Of a stretch of 64,000 bases of DNA, positions 3,201 to 63,739 are shown piece by piece; the first letter of the stretch is position 1; the number at the start of each line of letters is the position of its first letter. Location: NCBI RefSeq assembly GCF_028641065.1, contig NC_073398.1, positions 28,582,001 through 28,646,000 of the forward strand, given 5' to 3'. This stretch comes from Leucoraja erinacea. Its lineage: Eukaryota. The notes beneath the pieces were generated by a model that saw only the letters and a program-made list of their open reading frames with translations, was not told where the DNA came from and did no database searches. The translations under genes were made by a program, and so were the position numbers.

Positions 3201-6200
3201 CCCCTGGTGTGTAGTGGGATAACTAGTGTGAACGGGTGATCAATGGTTGGCGTGGAAACAGTGGACTGAAGGGCCAGGTTCCGTGCTGTATTGCAAAACT
3301 AAAACTAAACGAAACATCCCAAAACAAACTTGTTACAATTAACTCATTTTAGAGCCTTTGATTCAAGTTGTCACATCATTTTCTTGATCAGGGAACATTG
3401 ATAATATAATTAAGGACATTTCCTTAGCATTCCTTTAATTGATGGTTGATGGTAGACAAGGGCTGGGTGCATTTTTCCCTGCTGCATCTCTATGACTGTG
3501 ACTAATGGTGCTATCGGAAGGCATTTTTCATAAAGTTAGGCTAAATTAAAGGAAATTTAATCTAGATTTACCTCCATTGCAGCCCGATGCCACGTTGGGT
3601 GGTGCTTCTACGCTGTGAAATATACGCTTCATGATAAAATTGGTTTAGAGTGAAATTAATTATAATATATCCTGTAATAATTCAAAGCCAGATTGTCTCT
3701 ATTACATTTTATGCAGCATCACTGTGCTACAAAGCATGAAGCTAGGCATTGATGTCAACAGACACAAAGAGATAATTGTGAAAGCTATCTCTGCCCTCAT
3801 GCTTCTGCTGCTCAAGCATCTCAAGCTCAACCATATCTACCAGGTAAACTGTGTGGTTCCTCAATCGGGGCACTGCCAAACACTTGAGGTCACCTCTGGA
3901 TGCACAAAGGGGAACTTAGACTTGGTTCCTCTGTCTCCTAGAGGGCAGCTAAGGGCCACAGGGTAGGAACCCTTGCTTTGAACCCAACCAGCAACCAAGA
4001 CAACTAATCTGAATGGCATGGTTTACTGAGGAAGTGCAAAATTGTTGAGTGTGGGTGGTGGAGTAAGAATTCTACTGCCTTTCTGTGCGTTTAATCAAGA
4101 AGATGTTCATGTTTGAAAATTCCTGCATGAAGCTGAAAAGGAAGAATCCCACAAGAGGCAGGGCAGCACTCAATGTCATCTAAGGAAATGAAGCTGGACA
4201 GGTGGTGAAAATACCACTGGGGGAACAGCAATCATAATTCCGTGTTTTAATGTAATAGTGGTAAAATATATGGGTGATCCTCAAGTTATGGTCATGAACT
4301 GGGATAAACTTGATCTTGATAGCGTAAGAGAGGAATTGGTGAAAGGTCCTTGGTCTTTCACTTGGGCAGCTTACAACCCAGGAAAGGAAAGAGAAAAGAA
4401 AAAGGTCTGTGATGGGTTAGAGGTCAAGAGTGAATAGATGAAGCAGGGGACAATGGTGAATGAGACGGCCATAAAATAGAATGCAGGCCCCCAAGGGTGT
4501 ATAAACATTGCAACACAGCACTAGAGGGGTAGGGACTATAATGTGTTGGAGCTTGGTTGAGTTGTGTGAGGAGATGATCCCTCCTTACTCCCCTTTTTAT
4601 TCTCCTAGTTCGAATATGTTTCCCAGCACTTGGTATTTGCCAACTGTATCCCTCTCATTCTGAAGTTCTTCAATCAGAACATCATGTCGTACATCACAGC
4701 CAAGAACAGGTAAGGACGAACTCTGACCTCGCCCGTGTGACTGCGAACATAACCTGCGTACAGGGCATAATTTTATAACTGGGTTAGCATCCACAGGGAA
4801 GTCCACAGGGATGAGCGCATGGTCAACTGGCACATCAATGTCTTGGTCATCTAATTGTCTTTGTCAGGATCCCCATGTGTACTAGTCGAGAGCGGAAGGG
4901 ATATTTACAGCAAGCAAGCTAGCTTCTGTTTGGCCTGGCTGTCTCTTCCACCCAATTGTTGCTGGATGGGGGAAGTGACAACTGTGAGCCTGAAATGGAT
5001 TATTGACAGCCTGATTCATCATGAAGGAACATCACAAGCAGCTGACCTTGAACCTACCAAGCCAGTAAACCATTCTCAATCCAGAAAGGCTACCTAATAA
5101 AGAAGAGAGAATGGAGTCAGAAGCTAGTCGGTTGGGCGTCCTTCCTCGATGGCGTAGTGGCCTGGTGTGGACACCTGACTGGTTCTGAAAACTGGGGAAG
5201 ATTGTGAATTAAACTTTGGTATTTCCAGTTCATAAGAAATTAACACTCACTGATTTGCAACATTAAGTAAACAGTATTCTTATGATGTCTGCTGTATGTT
5301 TTTATATTGGAGTACAGAATGAGTTGNNNNNNNNNNNNNNNNNNNNNNNNNNNNNNNNNNNNNNNNNNNNNNNNNNNNNNNNNNNNNNNNNNNNNNNNNN
5401 NNNNNNNNNNNNNNNNNNNNNNNNNNNNNNNNNNNNNNNNNNNNNNNNNNNNNNNNGGCAGTGTAATTAAGAAGTCACTGTTTGCATTGGCAGGGACACT
5501 GCTAATTAAGAATTTCAGATTGAAGATAATGAAAAGGCGGGAAGATGAGAAAACATTTTCTCACAGAGCATATAACGATGTGGATAAAATCAGGAGAGGG
5601 CAGATTAAATACTAATGTTTAAAGAGAAGTTGGATAAATGCTTAAAAAAGAAAACACTGGAGATGTTTAGGGAACAACAATGGGGTAGAACTAACCAGAT
5701 TGCCCTGGAGAGCCATGTGCCAACTGGACACCCCTTGATCTCTGTTGTTTGAATGAGGAATGGAAAATGGACAGAGGAAGCACCAGATAGTTTTGGCATT
5801 AACCCTCCGTGAACTGCACAGTGTGAGAAAGCGGAGGATGGAAGCAGCAACCAAAACGATTCTGTTGATCTCAGTCATCAAATTGTGCAGTGCGGCCCGT
5901 TGTGGCTGCACAACGTCCTGTGGGGTTTCTGCAAGGCCTGCTGAGAAATCTGTGATTATGCAAATGACTCTGTAGACTTTGTCACAGCTATGTGTTGTTT
6001 TGTGCACAGTATCGCTGTCCTGGACTATCCTCACTGCGTGATCCACGAGCTGCCAGAACTTACTACTGACGCTCTGGTAAGTACAGGGAATGAAAGAAAC
6101 TAACATGGAAGGGTCTCGACCTAAAACGTCACCCATTCCTTCTCTCCAGAGAGGCTGCCTGTCCCGCTGAGTTACTTCAGCTTTTTGTGTCGAACATCAA

Positions 6201-24629: not shown

Positions 24630-24814
24630 TCAAGAGCGGCTGCCAACAGACTCCATGATTGACTTCATCGCTTCCCAGGTCTCCTGGGCAGTTGGAATGA
24701 TCTCTCTGGAAGGCAGCATGAAACCATAGCGACCAGTATCACGGAGTTCAAACGCAAAGGAGTATTTGATGCCTTGGTTGTAAGTCCAGTCAATGCTGCC
24801 TCCACTAGCCTGAT
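24630..24814 (-). CDS. CPA2: CPA2 exon 11 ([22 protein letters not shown])
   Basis: 185 nt; E270; AATAAA at 24607-24612 (minus). Confidence 0.92.
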
Positions 24815-27800
24815 CTGAAAAGGAAGCGAGGGAAAGAGAAACAATTTGGTTTCTGAGTATTTGATCATCTGGGTTTATAAATTAAATAAAGAGTTTGGAT
24901 TCATCTAGTGTTGATGTGCGTGGTTGATCAAAGATGCAGTCCAAGGATGATCAAGCAAGCAGTCCAATGAGACATATTCTAAAGTAAAGCCATTGGCTTG
25001 ACATATAAAGTACAGAGTCTCCCACATACACCAAGTAATCTGTCTTTGTGAAATTGGTTGAGGGGTTAACATTGCTCAGGACACACAGGAGAACTACCCT
25101 GTCAAGGGATTTTTCATAAATACTGAAGAGAATAAATAAGAATGTCTCACCAATCTCAGCAATAGGTCTAAGAATTCAGTTTTTTTTTAAATTGAGCATT
25201 GCACTGGAGCATCAACTTGGATTAAGTCCTTAAATCTCTGGTGTTGTGGTGCGTGGGTCTCAAAAGGAGGCACGAAGTCCAGTGTTTGAGAAGCACCTTT
25301 ATTGTATTCCTCCCGGTTGAAGGGAAGACGAAACCAGAGGAAGATGGCACCCAAACCCTGCCTTTTAAACCCTCCGGCTGAGGGCCGCCTCCGGACTGCA
25401 CCACTCCTGTGCTGAGGGGTTCGGCAGTATAATGGCATGACCCTTAGGAGCCGCCACAGGACCCCCTCCCCCCCCAGAACCAGAGGCACAAAACGCACCG
25501 GCGGGCGCACGACACCCGGCCGGCCCGCGTGCGGAAGTCAGCAGATCCCGGGGCTTGCGGGGGCGTAGGTGGAGGGACAGGTCGAGGGGCCGGCGGGAGG
25601 ACAGGTGGAGTGACAGGTGGAGGGAGTCGTGAGGGGGGGCGCCCTCGGGGCCGAGGTTGAGCAACCAGCACCGGCTGGTCAATGTCCAGGTGCGCCGGCT
25701 TTAAACGGTCAATCGACACGGCCTCCGGCCGGCCCCCCCATGTCCAGGACAAAAGTCGAGCCACCACAGTGTGATCTTTGAACCCACGACAGTTATAGAG
25801 ATTACATAATGAGCCTCAGCTGATGTCTATAATGTTGGTGTTCTTCCATCTTTCCTGAGCTGATTCTGATGAAACCACTGTCCATGTACATCAACCATCA
25901 CCCGCATAATTTCATCCAGGTATCTCATCTTCCTGCCTGAGGCAAGACAAGGAGAGTCAACTGAACTCAAGTGCTCTGATATTCAACATTGTCCTACCCT
26001 CACCTTGGTAGTGGAAATCACCAGATACCAATTCTACACTGAACTCAAGTGCCATCCCCTCCCCTCCCCAGACTACTTCCTCTGAATATTCCTATTCCCC
26101 ACCAGAAGTAATCTCTTTCATTCAATGACGGATCAGGGAACCATTCAGGGAAGGTTATGTTTTTACCATATTCATGTTGGTTTTTAAGTCCCTCCATAGT
26201 CTTTCGTCCCTCGTCCCTGGAATCTCTAATATGATTCTCCACTCCACCAGATCCTGTACATTCCAATTTTAATTGCTTCCCCACTATTGGTGGTCGAGCT
26301 TTGTGTTGCCACAGTCCTAAGTGCTGCAATTTGTTCAGTAAAGCTCCATACCTCTCTCTATCCTACCTCTTACCTCTCTCTTACCTACTTATTCACTTCT
26401 CAGGTGCTTCCAAAGACTTTTGTCACTGCCTTCATAACTTTCTACTTGGCTTGGAATCAATGAGTCTTTTGTTTGGTAAAGCAAGTGTGGAACTAAGTAA
26501 TATTTTTTCTGCATTAAAGACACTGTTTCTACTACACTGAGAACTACAGTTACCAGCCATCAGGGAGTGTAAAATCCATTCTCTCTCTCCTGACATCGTT
26601 ATGCAAGAGACTGTAACACTGCCAGATGACTTACAGATTGCATCACAGATGGATCCAATTTCGTATCGTGTTCCATACATCGAGGTTAAAGACCTGACAG
26701 CGGATTTGGCAATTCCTTCCTAAAGCAAAGAATAATCAGGATCAGCAACAGAAGAATTCCTGACTACTAGAGTTCATTTGCAAAAGGTATTTTACATGAT
26801 GAAGAAAAGCCATCCAGCTTCTCCTGTTCACTGTTTCCATGTGGAATTCATCATCACATTCACCTTTGAAGAAGGTATTTTGGATATTGTAGCGGCACCA
26901 AACGTGGTGAATAAAGGTGAGACGTCAGGCCGGTTCAAAGGGTCGTTTATTCAGTGGTGACACGTTAGGTTGGTGCACTAACTATATTACAATGTTGCTG
27001 TAGCCGAACGAGGTTGTTCTCTCGGGCTCAGCTACCGGTTGACTCCTCAAGGTCTCGAGGTGAGAGACCTTAAGTACCAGGACACTCCCTCTAACCCATG
27101 ACGTCACGTGCCCGCCCTCGTATCTCCTGACGAGGGTTCGAGCATGAGTGGCTCGTGTTTAGGCTGACGCCACAAAATGCACTAAATGATCGGGCATTGT
27201 TTGTCACCCTTCACCCCAGCTTGGAGCGAGAAGCCAGTAGAAGCAACTTGCAAATAGGTTGGTCAGAGGAGTCCTGGGTCAATTCTTGTTCAATGTTGAG
27301 ATGACTAGCTCCAACATGGATTGGAACAGGGACACTAATTATGTATTTTCCCTCTGGAATGTGAAAGGTCCATTTTCCTGTTTGCAATGTGCCCCCTACT
27401 GGTTATCTAGGGTAGGACAATATTATAAAATAATATGTATCTCATAGATGTTAACTGAAGATGCTGAGTTGAAATGAAACAAACCTCTTCCCGATGCAGT
27501 AAATGACAATGCCTGACTTGCAAAAAATAGGCGAAAGAGGGAAAAAACACTATGGTGAGAAGGCAAGGGGAGGGGGGTGGGTGGGGTGGGGTGGGGGGGG
27601 GGGGGGGTGAAGAATTAAGAACATAGGTAAAGTTTGACCTACCAGCTCCTGGTAATCAGCAGGATGCACACATTTATACCCGAAGGGAATCATGAGGAGC
27701 TGTGAGTAACTGTGAATGGAGATGAAGCTCTTGATGTTTTTGTGGTTCTGCAAAAAGTTCACAATGGCTGCAACCTCAGATTCAGAGTTGGCGTAGGGTC

Positions 27801-30800
27801 CATGATAAGTTTCCCTGCACGGATTGCTACTGGTTCCAGGACCTATCATCGGAAGTACAGACACAATGATTCCTCACACAAACATCCAAGTGCATTGTTC
27901 CCGTCATCCTCAATTCCCTTCCTCTCCTGAAGGTGCCACCACAGTGCAGATGTCCACTATCCTCTTCCCGCGGAAGCTGCAACTTATTGTCTGACTATGC
28001 AGCAGCGATGCATGTGGTCCTCTGCTTGAACGCTACCTCATCTGCTTAGGATGTGTAGCATTCATCCCGGATTGACCTTGTCTCACCAAATCAATTCAAG
28101 GTCTGAATGGGTAAGATTTCCTTCCCATTGCAGAATCACAGAGTGGTTACAGCAGGGAAGGAAGCTTTTGAGACCATTAAGTTTACACCAGCCCTACATT
28201 AGGACAGTGAAGTGAGTCATCCTCTTCCCATAGCTCTTTATGGTATTTCCATGTTACCTATTCAGCTTTGTTTAGAATATAATCAAATCTGCTTTCACTA
28301 CCACATCCTATCTGTCCGATTCTAACCACAACCTGTAAAAAATGGTGCATTACTATTGACACTGGGAATCAATCACCTTTAATCTTAATCTGCAACAGTT
28401 ATCCCATCTTTCATGTTTTCTAGATTTCTAATAAATCTCCTCACAACCTCCTATGTTGTTCCAGTGAGATCAAAAGTACTTCCCCAATGTACAGGTTTCT
28501 CTTCCCGAGAATCAATTACTTCAATTTCAGAAGTCCTGATAGAAGTATATAACATTTTCAGAGGTATAAATAGGATAAATGCAGTTAGATCTTCTTTCCC
28601 AGGATAGAAATGTCAATTAGTAGAGTGCAGAGTTTTAGGATGAGGGGGCAACATTTAAAGTTAACATTCAAATTTAAAGAAGATATTTGGGGCAAGTATT
28701 TTTACATGGACTGTGGTGAGTGCCTGGAATGCACTGCCAGGGGTAGTAGTGCAGGCAGGGCACTACAATAGTGCCATTTAAGAGATGTTTGGATAGGCAC
28801 CTGTATAAACAGGGAATGGGGGAATGTAGCAGACAGATAAGAGTTGGTCTTGGCATCATGTTCAGTACAGACATTGTGGGCTGAAGGGCCTGTTCCTGTG
28901 CTGCAATGTTCTTTGAGGCTAGTCCTAGTTTGCTTCACCTTTATATAATGAATGGTTTAAATTAACTGAATACTATTGAGATCAAGAGTTCAGATCTCTG
29001 AATTATTACTCCAGCAACATAGCCCATTCTGGACTATAATGCCACCCACATTTCTGCCGAATGCATTCAGTCATTATATTCAGCTTCAATATTCCAAGGA
29101 TAGAGGGAACAAGACATCATGATTAGCCACCAGACCGTTAATTTCTGGAGGCTAAGGCAGTGACAGCTACAGCTATACGGATTTAACCCTGGAATAGGCA
29201 CAACAGTGGTGGCTACTGTGGTCAAATAGTTTTCTGGATAAATATACAATCTGCAGGATGGACATAGAAACATAGAAAATAGGTGCAGGAGTAGGCCATT
29301 AGGCCCTTCGAGCCCGCACCGCCATTCAACATGATCATGGCTGATCATCCAATATGATCATGGCTGATCATCCAAACGCATTGGGTTGGGCAACATCTGT
29401 GGATGGAAAGTTCTCAAAATTACAATCTCAAACACCAACCATTCCTTTGCCCCCACAGATGCTGCTTGACCAGTTGAGTTTCTCCAGCAGATTGTTGCTT
29501 CATATTCCTGCTTCTGCGCTCTTCAGAGTGTCTCCAGCTCTCTGAATCCCACTGCCTAATGGTCCCACTTCTGGCCATGAGAGGAATATACTCTTATTTT
29601 AGGGCACTTCAAATTTTCCTCGGAGGACAACTGGAAAAGCACAGGCTTGACCAAAAGCCCATACACGAGGCCACATATTCACACTACAGCTTGTGAAAGA
29701 AGGAAGGAAAATGGGATGCGGAGACAGGGAAAACAAATTTAAATTCCCTCACGAACCTCCAAAGCCGGCATCAAAGTTCCTGTTGGCATCGACCCCAAAA
29801 CATTTCCCTCCGGGGGCTACAGACCTGGTCTTGCGCCACATTCGATTCTATGGAAATTACACAAGATATTAATCCCAGCAGTGGAGAGACAGAGGTGCTG
29901 CAATAGTTATTTTGAGCTTTCAAGAATGCTAACACCCATTCTCTAAGCTCATGAGGGAAACATAATGTTGTGATCTGGCCACACAGGGATGCTACAATAT
30001 TCGTTCTCAGAAATCACAAGAATGCTCTAATACTTATTTTTCCAAAATTCTCTTGCCTAACTTTTCTTTTGGTGATGTTATGATCTTTTTCCTTTGAGCT
30101 AATATTATCTTTCTCTTGATAGATACAGAAAGCTGAAAGCTGGAGTAACTCAGAGGGACAGGCATCACCTCTAGAGAGAAGGAATGGTTGACATTTCGAG
30201 TCGAGACCCTTCTTCGGATTGAAGAAGTCTGAAGAAGACTTTCAGGTCCGAAAATGTCTCGACCCGAAACATCACCCATTTCTTCTCTCCAGAGTTGCTG
30301 CCTGTCCCGCTGAGTTACTCCAGCTTTTCTGTGTCTATCATCGGTTAAACCAGCATCTGCAGTTCCTTCCTACACATTATCTGTTTCCTGTTTGTCAAGA
30401 CCTTTTCTGTGGGTTTTCTGTTTTGTCTTAAAGCATTACATATTGCATGTAAACTATATTGGAGGAATCAGGGAGTATTAGTGAAATTATTGTTTTAGTG
30501 TTTTCTTTTGAACATTGAGGTTGAGGGGACACCTGATAGAAGTTTATAAAATTATGAGAGGCATCAATTAGGTAGACAGAATGGATTGTTTTACACTGAG
30601 AGCAGCAGATGCTGGTTAACACCGAAGTTAGACACTTGCAGGAGGAACTCAGCGGATCACAGTATATGTAATGAATGGGAGATTGGGAGGTATAGGGGGT
30701 GTGCACGTAAGGTCACTGGGTCATAGGGCTTGACGAACGGAGCCGCTCAATCCATCTGGAGGACATCCGTAACTTCCGGTATATGTTATTAATGCAAGAA

Positions 30801-39617: not shown

Positions 39618-40400
39618 GTTCATAAGTTCTAGGAGTCGAATTAGTCCATTCGGCTTATCAAGTCTACTCCGCCATTCAATCATGGCTGATTTATCTTTCC
39701 CTCTCAACCCCATTCTCCTGCCTTTGCCCCATAACCCCTGATACCTGTACTAATCAAGAATCTGTCAATCTCCACCTTAAAAATATCCATTGACTTGGCC
39801 TTTCTTCTCATCAGCTTTCTAAAGGTACATCCTTTTATTCAGAGGCTAATGTTTCTGGTCCGAGACTCTCCTTGGTTCTTAGTTTCTTGGTCCTCCAAAA
39901 TATTCCAAATGGAATTTAAACTGGAGGTGGTACCCCATCTCCCCACACACCTCTCTCCCCCCCCCATCACTCTCTCCTCCCCCTCTCCATCTCCCTCTCT
40001 TCAACCCTCTCCCTCTCCTCCCCCTCCTCCTCCCACCCCCATCCCTCTCTCCCCCACCCCCTTCCCCTCTCCCTCTGCCCCTTCCCCCTACCCCTGTGTC
40101 CCTCTTCCACCTCTCTCCTCCTACCCCTCCCTCCCCACTCTCTCCCCCTCTCTCCCCCCCCCACCCCTCTCCTCCTCCTCTCCACACTCTTCCCCCTCCC
40201 TCCCCTATCCCATCTCCCTCCTCCCCCTCCCTCCCCCATCCCAACTAGTGGAAACATCCTCTATACATTCACTCTATCCAAGGCTTTCACTATTCGGTAA
40301 GATTTGATGAGGTGCCCCCTCATCCTTCTAAATTCTAGTAAATACAGGCCCAGCGCCTACAAATGGTCATCATATGTTAACCCAATCATTCCTGGGATCT
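39618..40400 (-). mobile_element. CR1 fragment interrupted by a LINE 3' tail and a C/T-rich tract
   Basis: CR1 3' UTR and RT end split at gactctc|...|actagtggaaac. Confidence 0.75.
39935..40242. repeat. Polypyrimidine low-complexity tract
   Basis: Almost only C/T over ~300 bp. Confidence 0.9.
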
Positions 40401-40908
40401 ACATGAGGTACTGCATCATGAAGGTTGCATATATCATCAAGCATCCTCGCAATTTGGCCAAAGCCTTCATCATGACAGTATCATCAGGCAGGAGATGCAG
40501 AAGCCTGAAGTCCCCCACCACCAGGCTCAGAAACAAGTTCTCTCCAGAACTATTGGTTTGTTGAACCTTCCTGCAGAACACTAGTCCTACTTCAGCAAGG
40601 AAATACTACAGGCCTCTTGCACTACCACAAACTTTTCTAATTATGCTTTTTCTCAAATGTTTTCTTTACCACAATCTTCTGCTTTTTACCATCTTGGCTA
40701 ATTTATGTCTGATTCATGTTTTTTTGTGTTGACAGAGTCTATGTGCCTGTGATGTTGCTGCAAGGACATTTTCATCATACCTGTACCTCACTTGTGCATA
40801 TGATAATAGGGCCCTTGCACGGCAGGCGAGGTCACGACCCCTGAATCGTACTGTTGCCATGCAACGCCTTCTGGAGTACAAGCGGTGAACTTCAGGTAAG
40901 CACTTCCT

Positions 40909-43291
40909 ATGGCTGCCATTACAGCGGGCCCGTCTTCTGTCCCGGCATCCGCAGTATGCTTCCAATCTAGCAACTGAGGAGTATGCACGATATGTCCAAA
41001 AAGTCTCCTTGATTGGTATTAAACCTTACTTAGTGCCTGAAGCTGAGAAATCCCGTGACATCTCCCAACTACCAGAACTGAATTCCATGGACATCATGGC
41101 CTATCTCATCTCAACACCCAGTTCATACACAGCAAATAATTTCCAGGAGTATAAGTCATCGGAGGCTTATACTCCTGGAAATGGTTGGTTACATGACACT
41201 AGTGTATATATCCCAAATCTTGTCCACACTTACGAGTGGTGTGTGGAAAAGTAAGTTTTCTATCATTTGTTTTGCTATTACTTATTGGAAGCTATTTTAA
41301 CACTTTCTTTCTTTCTTTTCAATTATCCTCGTACTATAGGTTCCTCACTCGCAAGCTGTAGGCGTGACTTCTAGGTCATTGCTGCCGTGGGTTATTGGGA
41401 CAAATGGCCAGATTTGCAGTGCCCGCTGTGATTGCTCGGCAAAGTTTGTACCCATGTAGCAATGCTTCTCTTTGGTATTGACGCTGGAGTACGGATTCGT
41501 GAGAAAACAACAGTCACCCAGGTCAAAGCATATTGGATGGAGCCAACAAGAAAGCAAGTTAAAGCTGCGCCTGTCAGCAAAGTTGACTTCTCTTCAGCAG
41601 CAGGGGAAATGATGGCTTGATGCTGCCATAGATGGGACAGAGCCGAAACAGCAACAAACAAGAGATGAAGCTCCAACAGTGGCATCCGCTTCTTGTCCAA
41701 CATGGGAGCTGCTGCAGGACAAGCAATGAGTGAACTTTTGTTGGGCCTGTCCCTGGCCACAACAAAATCGACCATAATTAGCTCTATTGACCCTTATGCA
41801 GCAAGATTTGTTCCTTCCGAGACTGTTAAAAAAGAATTTCCACCCATTCTTACAGACTTAAAGGACAAAGACACATTCAGCTTAACATATGCTGATCGGC
41901 TAAAGAGGTGTGATATTGATTATTGTTACAGAGGAGGGGGCAAAGAATGTGGAGGCACACACTCGTCAGCAAGCCAAATCAAATATCTGGTTTTGGTATC
42001 GGGCAGGCCGCATTACAGCATTAAAACTGAAAAGTGCTTGCAGGACAAATGCAGGTGCTCCTTGGTTCTTGGTTTCTTGGTCCTCCAAAATATTCCAAAT
42101 GGAATTTAAACTGGAGGTGGTGGACGGAGAACTTAAGCCAGAAAGGGTTATTGGGAAGCTACTTTAAATTTAGATGCATCTGGTTGGGTAACTATAGTAG
42201 GGTGGAGATTATTCCATGCTTTAATTGTGCGGGGGAAGAACGAATTGCTGTACACATCTGTCTTTGTAGCTGGAATCACAAATTGGATTGAATGCCCTCG
42301 TCTGCTCCTAATTGGTTTGGGTTTGGTGTAGGTCTTGTAATCTATGTCGAGCTGACCATTTAAGATTTTGTAAAAACAGGTCAAACGGTGAGCTTCACGT
42401 CTGTCTTGGAGAGGGTTCCACCCCAGAGAATTCAGAAGTTTGGTAACACTTGCTTCTCTCTCATAGGTGTTAGTAACAAATCCTGCAATTAGTCTGATTA
42501 AATCGGAGTGCTCCTCCGATCTGTTCAGATTAAGCACCGAGGCAACAAGATGGGGCTGTGATCATGAACAGCAAGCAAGACAAGCTTATGACGATTATAT
42601 GCTGTACTGAACACTCCGGTTTCATAGTGACTCAGGACTGACCATAAACCGCAAGTACCCTCATTTGGGTGCAACACCGGATGGACTGGTTCAGTGTGCT
42701 AAGCATTGTTGCGGGGATGATGTTTTGATGTTTGTGAAACTAAATGTCCGTTCTGTAAGAAGGACATGTCTTTAATGTACACTGCAGAGGACAAACAGTT
42801 TTGTCTTCATGATGTGAATGGTGAGTTTCATCTGTCCAATGAGCATGCTTACTACTACCAGGTCCAAGCCCAAATATTTGTCTCGGAGAGACCGTTTTGC
42901 GATTTTGTGGTATGGACCAGTGATGACATCCGCCCCATACAGAGCATATAATGGGTAATCATACTTTTTGGACAGATGCTGTAGCTGCTGCCATTCACTT
43001 CTTCAATTTAGGTGTGTTACCAGAGCTTGTTGGTGAGCATTTTACCAGCCCTCCCAAAAATATGTCAAAGAATGTCATGGAGACCGATGACCAGGATAAA
43101 CAAAAAGTGGTGCTACTGTCAGGAGGGGGAAAGCGGGAAAATGATCATGTGATAACCCAAAGTGTTTTATTTTGTGGTTTCATTTTGAATGCCTGAAATT
43201 GCTGGAAAATTATGAGACACCAAAAAAATGGTTTTGCCCAGATTGTAGGCTCCTCCCAAAATTACAAAAAAAAGTTCCCAAAAAGAAATGA
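40909..43291 (+). pseudogene. Decayed ISL2EU second gene: SWIM zinc finger + YqaJ/lambda-type exonuclease + ING-like PHD finger
   Basis: CDC..CTHVA; TRQQ...W...RAGRITA; WGCDHE; SGL..HLGATPDG; ETKCP; YYYQVQAQ; WCYC..GKMI.CDN..C..WFHFEC..KWFCPDC. Intron 41251..41339, several frameshifts and stops, and a LINE insertion. Confidence 0.85.
42063..42480 (-). mobile_element. LINE 3' fragment (L2/Crack/Daphne-like) inserted in the YqaJ gene
   Basis: SVTKLLNSLGWNPLQDRR..RL..FYKI...SFFPRTIKAWNNL; TCCT duplicated on both sides; removing it restores RTNAGAP-AISLIK. Confidence 0.8.
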
Positions 43292-43607
43292 ACTGCAACT
43301 GTTGTGCTGAACAGGTTTCTCATAAATACCAAGTCCAGCATTTATATACCAAGTTAGCCTTGCACTGCATAAAACCACATAGAAGGACATTTTGTGGTCA
43401 TTTTCACACAACAGTCTCTTTTTCAAACTGTTAAATTTAAGTTTAATGCTAAAGATTTTGAAGTGCACTTTAACTTCTGTGTTTGTTATTCAATGATTTG
43501 ACAATTACTTACAATTTCATCCATAATAAATGCTCATGAGCCAAGTAACTTTTTTGAGAATTTTTATTGTTCGTATATGCCCCATACGAAAGCAAAACTA
43601 TCTGCCC

Positions 43608-45452
43608 CTACTGTGAAACTATGGCTGCATTTAAGTTGAAAAGTGCACAACAGATCCTTGCAATTTTATCAATTTTGGGTGCTTGAATTTCAGCGTTGGT
43701 CATCATGTACTCCAGTGGTACAGTATTACTTAGAATTCGGTATTTTTGCCTGACACCACCAATCACACGCTTTACGTGAATGCGTAAATGTGCAAATTCA
43801 CGAGATTTTTCCACATCCAGCGCAGATAGTTCTGCTTTCCCACTTGTAATTGCAAGGATTTCTGCTTCACAACCGTAAAATCCGGCACAATCTTTCATGT
43901 CAAAACCGCGATCAGCAAAAATGACATCTCCAGGGAGCAGGTGGTCAAAAAAGTTAGATGAAAGTGTAATTGTATTATCTGTGCCGCTGTCCTCCAATGC
44001 CGCAGATACAAATGAAATAGCACCACTTGGTGCTATACCTAATACAAATTTGATGGTGTTATGGTGTTTATAGTTCAACAAAGTCTGGGTGCGCGCATCT
44101 AAACTTGTAGGTCTATCACAAAATACTTCAAAGCAATCTATAATCACTGCCACACGCTTTCCTAATGTCTGCCGAAATTGCATGGGCATGGTCTTCCACA
44201 GAACCTCTCTTTCGGGCCAAGCAATTAACTTGGATATGCCGTAAAGGGCATCAAGCCCAGTATTGAACACGCGTGATATTGTGGATTCACTAACAAAGAA
44301 TCGATACGCAAGATCTTCATGAGTCACTGCAAGTCGGAGCTTCATCAAGATGATCAGCAACTGCTGAAAATATGTTAGTGAATGTCTAGTGGGGAGCTTG
44401 TCCTGAACATAATTGAAGACCACCATCAAAATGGTAAACGTTGGTAAACCCGTGTAGTACTCAACCTTTTTGTCGTCCTTGGAAAAGCTTTCTTGTGAAA
44501 ACTTAATTTGGTCTGCTTCTTGCCTTGCTTTAGCGAGGTCTTTATTGTTGCTGGCTGCTTGTGCTTCCAGTACTGTTATGTCTGCTGCACACATTTCTGT
44601 TTGTGTTGATGTGTCCATTGTTTCTTTGACTGGTGTTTGTGTTTCCATGTCAAGTTCATGGTGTACTTGCAGCTCCGGTTCAAAGTTTTCATAATCATTA
44701 ACCTGTTCGACTTCATCTTGCAGAGCTACCTGTTCAACTTCATCTTGCAGAGCTACGAGTGCCTGAGCTGAGATCAAATCGGCCTTCGTACACTCTCTTT
44801 TTGTTGAACTAGTATGGCGGTCTTTACGTTTAACGTTACGTCCCATATTCACAGTTGGTGCCCAATCAGGATTGGTAACATTGTTCCATGCTGCAGGTTG
44901 TTCTGTAATGCAGAAATAACTAAACAAATAATTGTGTAGGCATTAAACAAAAATGTATATTTTGGCAAATAATAAAATGTCCTGACAGCTTAAACACTCA
45001 CTCCTTTCAAAGATATTGCCAATTTACTGAGTTGGATTATGTCCAATTAACAGCTAACAATTATGCCATTCCTTGTATCTGGGTGAAAAGTAATTCAAAC
45101 CCACGTATGGTTTGCGATTTTCTAATGATAAATTTAGCTTCAGAAGCGTTTTCTTTTTGCATGCATTTATCACTTCTAAAACTTTTTAGATACCAAAGGA
45201 ATCAAGAATAAAAAACATAAAGAATGCCTTACTATTGATGAAATGCAGACAGCAAACGCGATAATTCGCAATTTTTTCAATCTTGATATCTGTACGGCCA
45301 ATGTTCGCTAACCACTTTAGCTGTTGTTGTCCCTTCACCTCTCGTTTCTCTTTACCATCATTTCTCCTCACTTTCGGAATTCTGAAGTACGATAAATGTC
45401 TCTCGCGGTCACCCCTATTGGCACAATTTAATACAGCGCAGAAATTGACCAT
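43608..45452 (-). CDS. THAP-HTH-DDE_Tnp_4 transposase, 2 exons, 504 aa, catalytic E->K
   Basis: complement(join(43608..44902,45233..45452)); donor A|gtaagg, acceptor ttacag|. THAP C-C-W-CxxH plus PDWAPT; YYTGLP; LMKLRL..DLAYRF.VSESTISR (HTH); IIDCFE; YKHHNTIK; ADRGF; RIHVKRVIG. Confidence 0.85.
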
Positions 45453-45754
45453 TTTAGTGGGTTTTTTACCAACTGAGAAAGTTGGTGTTGCGTGTGTTAG
45501 CAGTGTAAGCCGGAAGCTGCCTTGTACCCCAGAAGGCGTGAGCGACTCCGTGCGTCACGTCCTTTGACCTGATGACCTTCCGTGCAACCTCCCCCCTCTC
45601 CCTCCCTCCCTATACACAAATACTAAACATTAAAACACGTGCAAAGGGGATAAACCTGATAGACGGCACTAAAATTCCCTCAAGGCCGAGCCAACCCCGT
45701 GGATCAGGTTGTGGTGTTGATGTTGACAGTCAGTGGGGCCTAGTCTGGTCCAGC

Positions 45755-45815
45755 CTGGCCTGGTCTGGTCTGGTCTGGTCTGGTCTGGTCTGGTCTAGTC
45801 TAGTCTAGTCTAGTC
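45755..45815. repeat. (CTGGT)n/(CTAGT)n pentanucleotide microsatellite
   Basis: Direct reading. Confidence 0.9.
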
Positions 45816-45824
45816 TGGGCTCCT

Positions 45825-46165
45825 GTAGCCACGGCTCGGTCCTGCTTGCGCTCGCGGGTTATTGTCGCTGTTGCCTAGCGACACCAAGATGACAAATGCT
45901 GTTATAAACTGTTTCCTTCTGTTGATGTGCCTTTGTGTGGTGATTAATGGGGGAATGAAAGGTCAGATGGTGTTATCCCCGGGTATATTGACCCCCCCCC
46001 CCCCGGTTGACCCCGGGCCCCGCCCACGTCACGGCTCAACTTTCCCGCCTCTGTTCAAACACGCCCGGCCGACGTCTGCGGAAGTGCTCTTTACGTCCGG
46101 TGACGGCGGCGGTGGCGGCGGACTGGGTGTGAGTGGAGGGGTCACGTCGGTGAGCGGACAGGTGA
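45825..46165 (+). promoter_or_regulatory. TMEM209 CpG-island promoter and non-coding first exon
   Basis: CpG-rich; X-box GTTGCCTAGCGAC 45870-45882; E2F-like TTTCCCGC 46041-46048; ETS GCGGAAGTG ~46078-46086; donor CAG|GTGAGT at 46161/46162. Confidence 0.7.

Positions 46166-46796: not shown

Positions 46797-63739
<16,943 letters not shown>

Follow-up and report, generated by a model that had tools for sequence, protein, structure and literature searches.

The window, by which we mean the whole 64,000-nt stretch of Leucoraja erinacea DNA that was analysed, contains an old copy of an ISL2EU DNA transposon whose transposase gene has an open frame and lies head-to-head with the host gene TMEM209. 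The features are:

40808..45611, minus strand: old copy of an ISL2EU DNA transposon, 4,804 nt long with its repeat insertion; its ends match sibling ends
40909..43300 (limits approximate), plus strand: broken partner gene (YqaJ exonuclease-PHD in intact relatives)
42063..42480, minus strand: repeat insertion in the partner gene; a gap in all sibling alignments, with a 92% match in L032
43563..43568, minus strand: poly(A) signal AATAAA, inherited from the transposon
43608..44902, minus strand: exon 2 of the transposase-derived gene, its linker bearing a 21-nt in-frame deletion and a 27-nt duplication; encodes a predicted long helix (aa 179-205), HTH_Tnp_4 (aa 247-294) and an altered DDE_Tnp_4 (aa 328-496)
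43770..43772, minus strand: codon AAG of E451K, the third catalytic residue; common to Amblyraja
44903..45232, minus strand: GT-AG intron, 330 nt, with 4 private frame-changing indels; internal neutral control
45233..45452, minus strand: exon 1, ATG at 45452; THAP zinc finger; identical to the start of P0003
45500..46500, no strand: CpG-rich promoter region between both genes; GC 0.56-0.62, CpG o/e 0.59-0.92
45586..45611, minus strand: 5' terminal inverted repeat, broken up by a purine-run expansion absent from siblings
45870..45882, no strand: palindrome resembling an RFX X-box, located in host DNA and not in the element; putative site, pattern match
46911..63730, plus strand: TMEM209 coding exons (PF09786, tblastn)

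The spliced transposase frame described in an earlier sequence-only reading holds: exon 1 (220 nt) and exon 2 (1295 nt) are joined across the GT-AG intron into 1515 nt encoding 504 aa, with no internal stop. THAP, HTH_Tnp_4 and DDE_Tnp_4 all score above their Pfam cut-offs, the helix-turn-helix thus being retained as that reading had it, and the ligands of the N-terminal C2CH zinc finger (C5, C10, C67 and H70) are kept in both the Leucoraja and the Amblyraja proteins. The doubled VALQDEVEQ produced by the in-frame 27-nt duplication is found at aa 123 and aa 132; it is limited to Leucoraja, without a counterpart in the Amblyraja protein. Structure prediction with 112 sequences gave the expected domains (pLDDT 86, pTM 0.64), the model being driven by the active relatives in the alignment and thus no proof that the altered protein folds, while prediction with 11 sequences was useless (pLDDT 33). 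Foldseek returned weak DDE transposase/integrase matches alone (best E 8e-4).

The head-to-head arrangement with TMEM209 was borne out by the PF09786 match and tblastn, which place its exons on the plus strand; a GT donor lets us infer that an upstream non-coding TMEM209 exon ends near 46161. The X-box-like GTTGCCTAGCGAC at 45870-45882, noted earlier, is the sole match of the search pattern within the 64-kb window. A pentamer repeat (45755-45815; GACTA/GACCA units, minus strand) separates it from the element end. SSMEM1, TMEM209's divergent neighbour in mammals, is a possible owner of the X-box; a search with PF15468 (SSMEM1) gave no match, and its control was equally silent, so that search is uninformative. 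Pfam also identifies zinc carboxypeptidase exons at 24633-27873 on the minus strand; with these on the minus strand and TMEM209 on the plus, the element sits between two host genes pointing away from each other. Farther off, at 3649-3963 (plus strand), are exons of a DUF3402 (STRIP-type) gene. The minus-strand AATAAA seen earlier at 43563-43568 is indeed there, and is the transposon's own signal, present in 9 of the 19 old siblings that cover the position.

The element is an ISL2EU, with a YqaJ-PHD partner gene and AT flanks, and not Harbinger proper. A PIF/Harbinger (HARBI1-type) origin was rejected on the same two characters, the partner not being Myb/SANT and the flanks not being a TWA duplication. 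The published definition gives ISL2EU as a THAP-HTH-DDE transposase with YqaJ and AT flanks (PMC4482050, PMC9179366). The window copy resembles the elements there described in its THAP-HTH-DDE protein, its YqaJ partner and the AT at both ends (40806-40807 and 45612-45613), its 4,804 nt comparing with about 4.4-4.8 kb; it is unlike them in being fixed, in its broken partner and lost catalytic E, and in ends that, with AT taken as the flank, read AG where GG is usual (PMC4482050, PMC9179366), an alternative division being TA followed by a GG end. Active ISL2EU have an intact D-D-E triad and two intact ORFs, whereas the window copy has E451K and the broken partner. ISL2EU is abundant in the skate genome, in contrast to elephant shark, where none was detected (PMC9179366).

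The partner ORF of the intact relative L007 carries YqaJ and PHD (Pfam), and the window partner is its broken homologue. Its breakage, with several frames carrying stops, and its insertion of a repeat of about 420 nt are as claimed before; the identity of the insertion as a LINE fared less well, with no Pfam match, although its peptide looks LINE-like. About 60 nt at the margin of the inserted repeat (42059-42120) occur again 2.2 kb away, at 39868-39930.

Relatives in the same genome (G000) are represented by 59 matches from 40 scored of 97 candidates, and fall into two groups: young copies with open frames, which agree at 98-100% in exon 2, and old ones, which agree mostly at 85-92% and include the window copy. 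Within the old group it associates loosely, with low support, with L028, L040, L047, L048 and L051. The closest other copy is about 93% identical in exon 2, and there is no second near-identical genomic copy of the window gene among the scored matches. Thirty of the 40 fetched loci served as dead-sibling controls; excluded from the sibling counts were 7 young copies, 2 intermediate ones (L025, L036) and 1 near-duplicate (L031). The recently active subfamily (L022, L023, L026, L027; L061-L079) includes L026 as one two-gene copy, its young transposase-only copies bear the 5' end at both termini, and there are many palindromic 1.4-kb young derivatives, 95-99% alike. The ends of this subfamily were derived by self-comparison, and ATAGGG stands at both ends in 18 of the 24 young loci examined. 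Two further transposases, P0006 and P0007, are 64-69% identical to the window protein against a background of 40-50%, a closeness that is a possible sign of horizontal transfer of the ISL2EU family.

The spliced window protein matches P0003 (Leucoraja erinacea LOC129707898, isoform X1) at every residue. Among the 6 members of the P0003 cluster are Amblyraja radiata LOC116985328 and two proteins found only in Logan, 506 and 496 aa long, that run through the splice junction. The contigs of the latter (1,639 and 1,582 nt, against a genomic span of 1,845 nt) leave no room for the intron, and these protein-collection records thus show indirectly that spliced RNA exists. The odd C-terminus of one of the two looks to us like adapter read-through.

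The Amblyraja protein (P0125, LOC116985328) is intact, 501 aa long and 95% identical to the window protein, and shares with it W348L, S349L, W376L, G377E, G378D, R379S, K383N, P423L, F425I, R427S and E451K. P0125 and Amblyraja TMEM209 lie on the same 43,974,050-nt contig and have consecutive accession numbers, from which P0125 is apparently at the same insertion site, beside TMEM209. The earlier suggestion to look for the frame in other skates and rays is answered for a second genus: it is kept there, with the same substitutions and apparently at the same site. The proposed alignment of the E->K codon was equally clear, with GAG in 26 of the 27 other genomic copies that cover it. The change is thus private to the locus and, being common to Amblyraja, predates the Leucoraja-Amblyraja split. 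In other skates no orthologue fragment exceeded 53% identity among the best 120 of 380 hits, and no orthologue from Rhinoraja longicauda or six ray/sawfish species, all of which have TMEM209 in the protein collection, was among the best 120 of 915 hits; this weakly suggests that the gene is restricted to Rajidae.

Another old ISL2EU copy, L021 (G000:C11:49664400-49672000, about 800-2800), has lost its 5' end and lies directly downstream of a CpG island (GC 0.65-0.72). Its exon 2 is open in both Leucoraja (P0005) and Amblyraja (P0130), while codon 26, in its exon 1, is a stop in G000; the D-D-E residues are kept, and Y351C, R405P and P423H are changed. L021 may be a second capture or an exonisation, and because it adjoins the CpG island it may not be a neutral control.

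Catalytic alteration had been read from RIHVK and LEDSGTD. Both were confirmed, the former with AAG at 43770-43772 (E451K) and the latter at aa 376, and many more residues of the active-site region are altered than these two. E451 is conserved in 98% of 108 distant homologues, and S349, G377, G378, R379, K383, P423 and Q431 (97-100% conserved) are also changed in the window protein; D329 and D404 are unchanged. The conserved PHIS motif includes P423 and E451 (PMC4122938). From residue conservation we infer catalytic death of the window transposase.

The earlier reading left room for chance survival of the frame. The window coding sequence has 0 stops and 0 frameshifts in 1515 nt, with 7-11 expected from dead siblings or from its own intron and partner gene. 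Among the siblings frameshifts occur at 4.2 per kb, and 31 of 5,741 codons are stops; at these rates 7.0-9.0 breaks would be expected in the gene, and none would be seen with a probability of 1e-4 to 9e-4. The element's own intron, spacer and partner gene have taken 16 private frame-changing indels in 2,556 nt (4 of the 16 in the 330-nt intron of the same transcript) against 0 in the coding sequence, where this non-coding rate predicts 9.5 (p=0.0006). All three coding indels across both species are in frame (21, 27 and 18 nt). The near-full-length old copies number about 5, as a lower bound, and with so few, choosing the sole intact copy does not account for the open frame. Open frames are not unique to the window copy, however, since L021 exon 2 is also open in both species. 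The G run encoding WGGR (43986-43997, codons 376-379) is a built-in self-inactivation hotspot of the ISL2EU family; its length at codons 376-378 is changed in 13 of 17 old siblings, frameshifting in 9 of them, and in the window copy it is interrupted by point changes. Siblings at first seem to carry W376L/G377E as well, but this is an artefact of aligning expanded G runs. Chance survival is thus improbable by the frame tests, yet a neutral relic stays a rival.

Purifying selection relative to the family, a check suggested with the earlier reading, did not emerge: with the majority of old copies as reference, whole-gene pN/pS is 0.85 against 0.69 in dead siblings (p=0.41), and being no lower than theirs it fails the test on average. 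Split by domain the counts are uneven. The DDE domain, one of four regions tested, has 33 nonsynonymous and 4 synonymous changes against 408 and 184 in siblings (p=0.009), and the THAP region 10 and 10 (p=0.07). The DDE skew remains under four filters that remove CpG-prone and shared sites (p=0.011-0.023), and the excess stays when changes common to two or more copies are removed. Under the locus's own mutation spectrum 25 DDE replacements were seen where 12.1 were expected (p=0.0008), and 1 silent change where 4.4 were expected; if clustered changes are counted as single events the excess falls to p=0.013-0.04. Codons 96-112 and 120-145 were left out of the grouping, change-timing, filter and mutation-spectrum tests. 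Measured against non-coding rates, DDE codon positions 1+2 were not significantly faster (20/333 vs 93/2347, p=0.11). Changes at conserved positions make up 16 of 35 in the DDE domain, against a neutral 167 of 418 (p=0.59), and 0 of 13 at highly conserved positions in the HTH region, against 20 of 102 in siblings (p=0.12). For three of the listed changes (L309W, C441R, P503S) the decayed state is that of the majority of dead copies, not of the window.

Changes were also dated with the Amblyraja protein, at the amino-acid level and in two species. Between aa 206 and 504 there are 43 shared and 5 post-split changes, against 17 and 14 in aa 1-205 (p=0.0009); aa 206-504 of L021 show 21 and 11, differing from the window gene at p=0.011. 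After the split the HTH-DDE half diverged at a rate like that of TMEM209 (5/299 vs 8/560, p=0.78), its slowdown relative to L021 was not significant (5/299 vs 11/298, p=0.14), and the N-terminal DNA-binding part was faster (14/185). Species divergence of the whole gene, 19/484, equals that of L021, 17/409 (p=0.87). The domain-wise and time-wise splits point to non-neutral evolution; the selection picture is mixed overall, and with two species the evidence is suggestive.

We consider it probable that this is a young, skate-restricted domestication of one kind or another, as host factor or as repressor. For the specific reading that it is a young domesticated gene of rajid skates whose product is a non-cutting DNA-binding protein, the chances seem to us about even. 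The candidate domestication put forward in the sequence-only reading thus gains a spliced product and a frame kept in two genera, and fails in the pN/pS test against the family. Among the alternatives, a neutral relic would owe its transcription solely to the adjacent bidirectional CpG promoter, with luck in its frame to which the broken G run contributed. Such a relic would have the near-neutral whole-gene pN/pS and the L021-like divergence between species that we found, its G run, so often altered in old siblings, is interrupted, L021 exon 2 is likewise open, and the finding was picked for being intact. Yet each of the few near-full-length old copies would escape disruption with a probability of only 1e-3 to 1e-5, frame-changing indels hit the intron of the same transcript repeatedly, the frame survives in a second lineage too, and the regional difference in timing is not predicted by neutral decay; we regard this explanation as unlikely.

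A brake on its own family, with a dead full-length protein occupying ISL2EU ends or poisoning active transposase complexes, would suit the kept DNA-binding domains and fold, the presence in the same genome of active-looking relatives with a 73% identical protein, and the clustering of changes in the catalytic domain, among them E451K and P423L of the PHIS motif (PMC4122938). The terminal repeat also differs between young copies, AGGGTGATTTCACTA, and old ones, AGGGRGGTTGCACG, which could be escape. The family nevertheless kept amplifying, as the near-identical exon 2 of its young copies and dozens of short derivatives, 95-99% alike, attest, and one substitution or truncation would presumably suffice for a brake, so that the roughly 30 DDE changes exceed the need. 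The dominant-negative idea raised earlier consequently gains little from a genome in which the young subfamily went on amplifying, and we think a brake quite unlikely. That the protein is still a working or semi-autonomous transposase is extremely improbable: it retains D329 and D404 and an open frame, but K replaces the nearly invariant E451, seven other highly conserved residues are changed, and no exon 2 copy is closer than about 93%. We therefore favour a host DNA-binding factor over a repressor of its own family, its function being predicted from these analyses.

As a host DNA-binding factor, the gene may have arisen when the element landed about 270 nt from the host X-box, with the TMEM209 start about 500 nt away, and so came under divergent CpG-island transcription. 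Decay of the partner gene and of one terminal repeat would then have fixed the copy. Before the Leucoraja-Amblyraja split the DDE domain would have gained about 30 amino-acid replacements, very few silent changes and neither stops nor frameshifts, a pattern that may be read as a dead nuclease fold remodelled into a scaffold, rebuilt rather than truncated; after the split the HTH-DDE half would have been kept almost unchanged. THAP and HTH would mediate DNA binding by the protein, probably to sequences like the element ends, of which the genome has many copies, and the protein would recruit partners as do the Harbinger-derived HDP1 and ALP1 of plants (PMC9392472).

Domesticated transposases are already known, as are dead ones and ones captured by bidirectional promoters. 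Capture at a bidirectional CpG promoter is the route described for TIGD1 (PMC2777200); TIGD1 and other such captures are, like the skate gene, recent, lineage-restricted and head-to-head with a host gene, with the frame kept. A transposase gene of the Drosophila obscura group, LOC26532114, is likewise head-to-head with a host gene and lineage-restricted (PMC13548663). TIGD1 belongs to another superfamily and keeps its DDE/D core, whereas the skate core is altered (PMC2777200); the skate gene is also unlike TIGD1 in its burst of amino-acid change followed by stasis. HARBI1, ALP1 and HDP1 similarly keep a DDE_Tnp_4-type fold as host proteins, the plant pair acting in chromatin complexes, and differ in being ancient and from PIF/Harbinger with a Myb-like partner (PMC9392472, PMC5753468), where the skate gene has its own THAP and HTH, was once paired with YqaJ, and has been found in just two skate genera. 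The transposase part of SETMAR is also catalytically impaired and kept as a DNA-binding module (PMC13548663); the skate gene is without fusion to a host domain and of ISL2EU rather than mariner origin. In the literature covered by the search, we found no printed ISL2EU-derived host gene and no paper naming the LOC129707898 locus.

The majority of domesticated transposases date back hundreds of millions of years, and their donors and early steps are lost. The skate gene can still be compared with its donor family, in the form of intact young copies and numerous dead siblings, with a neutral yardstick in the intron and partner gene of the same copy, and with a second species. Tentatively, and at somewhat less than even confidence, we propose that positive selection rebuilt a dead DDE domain for a new role in one skate lineage and then froze it, with the donor family still recently active in the same genome and ISL2EU captured again at another CpG island, that of L021. 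The order of events (promoter capture, catalytic death, remodelling and stasis) is measurable here, and in this skate system the question of repressor versus new function is directly testable.
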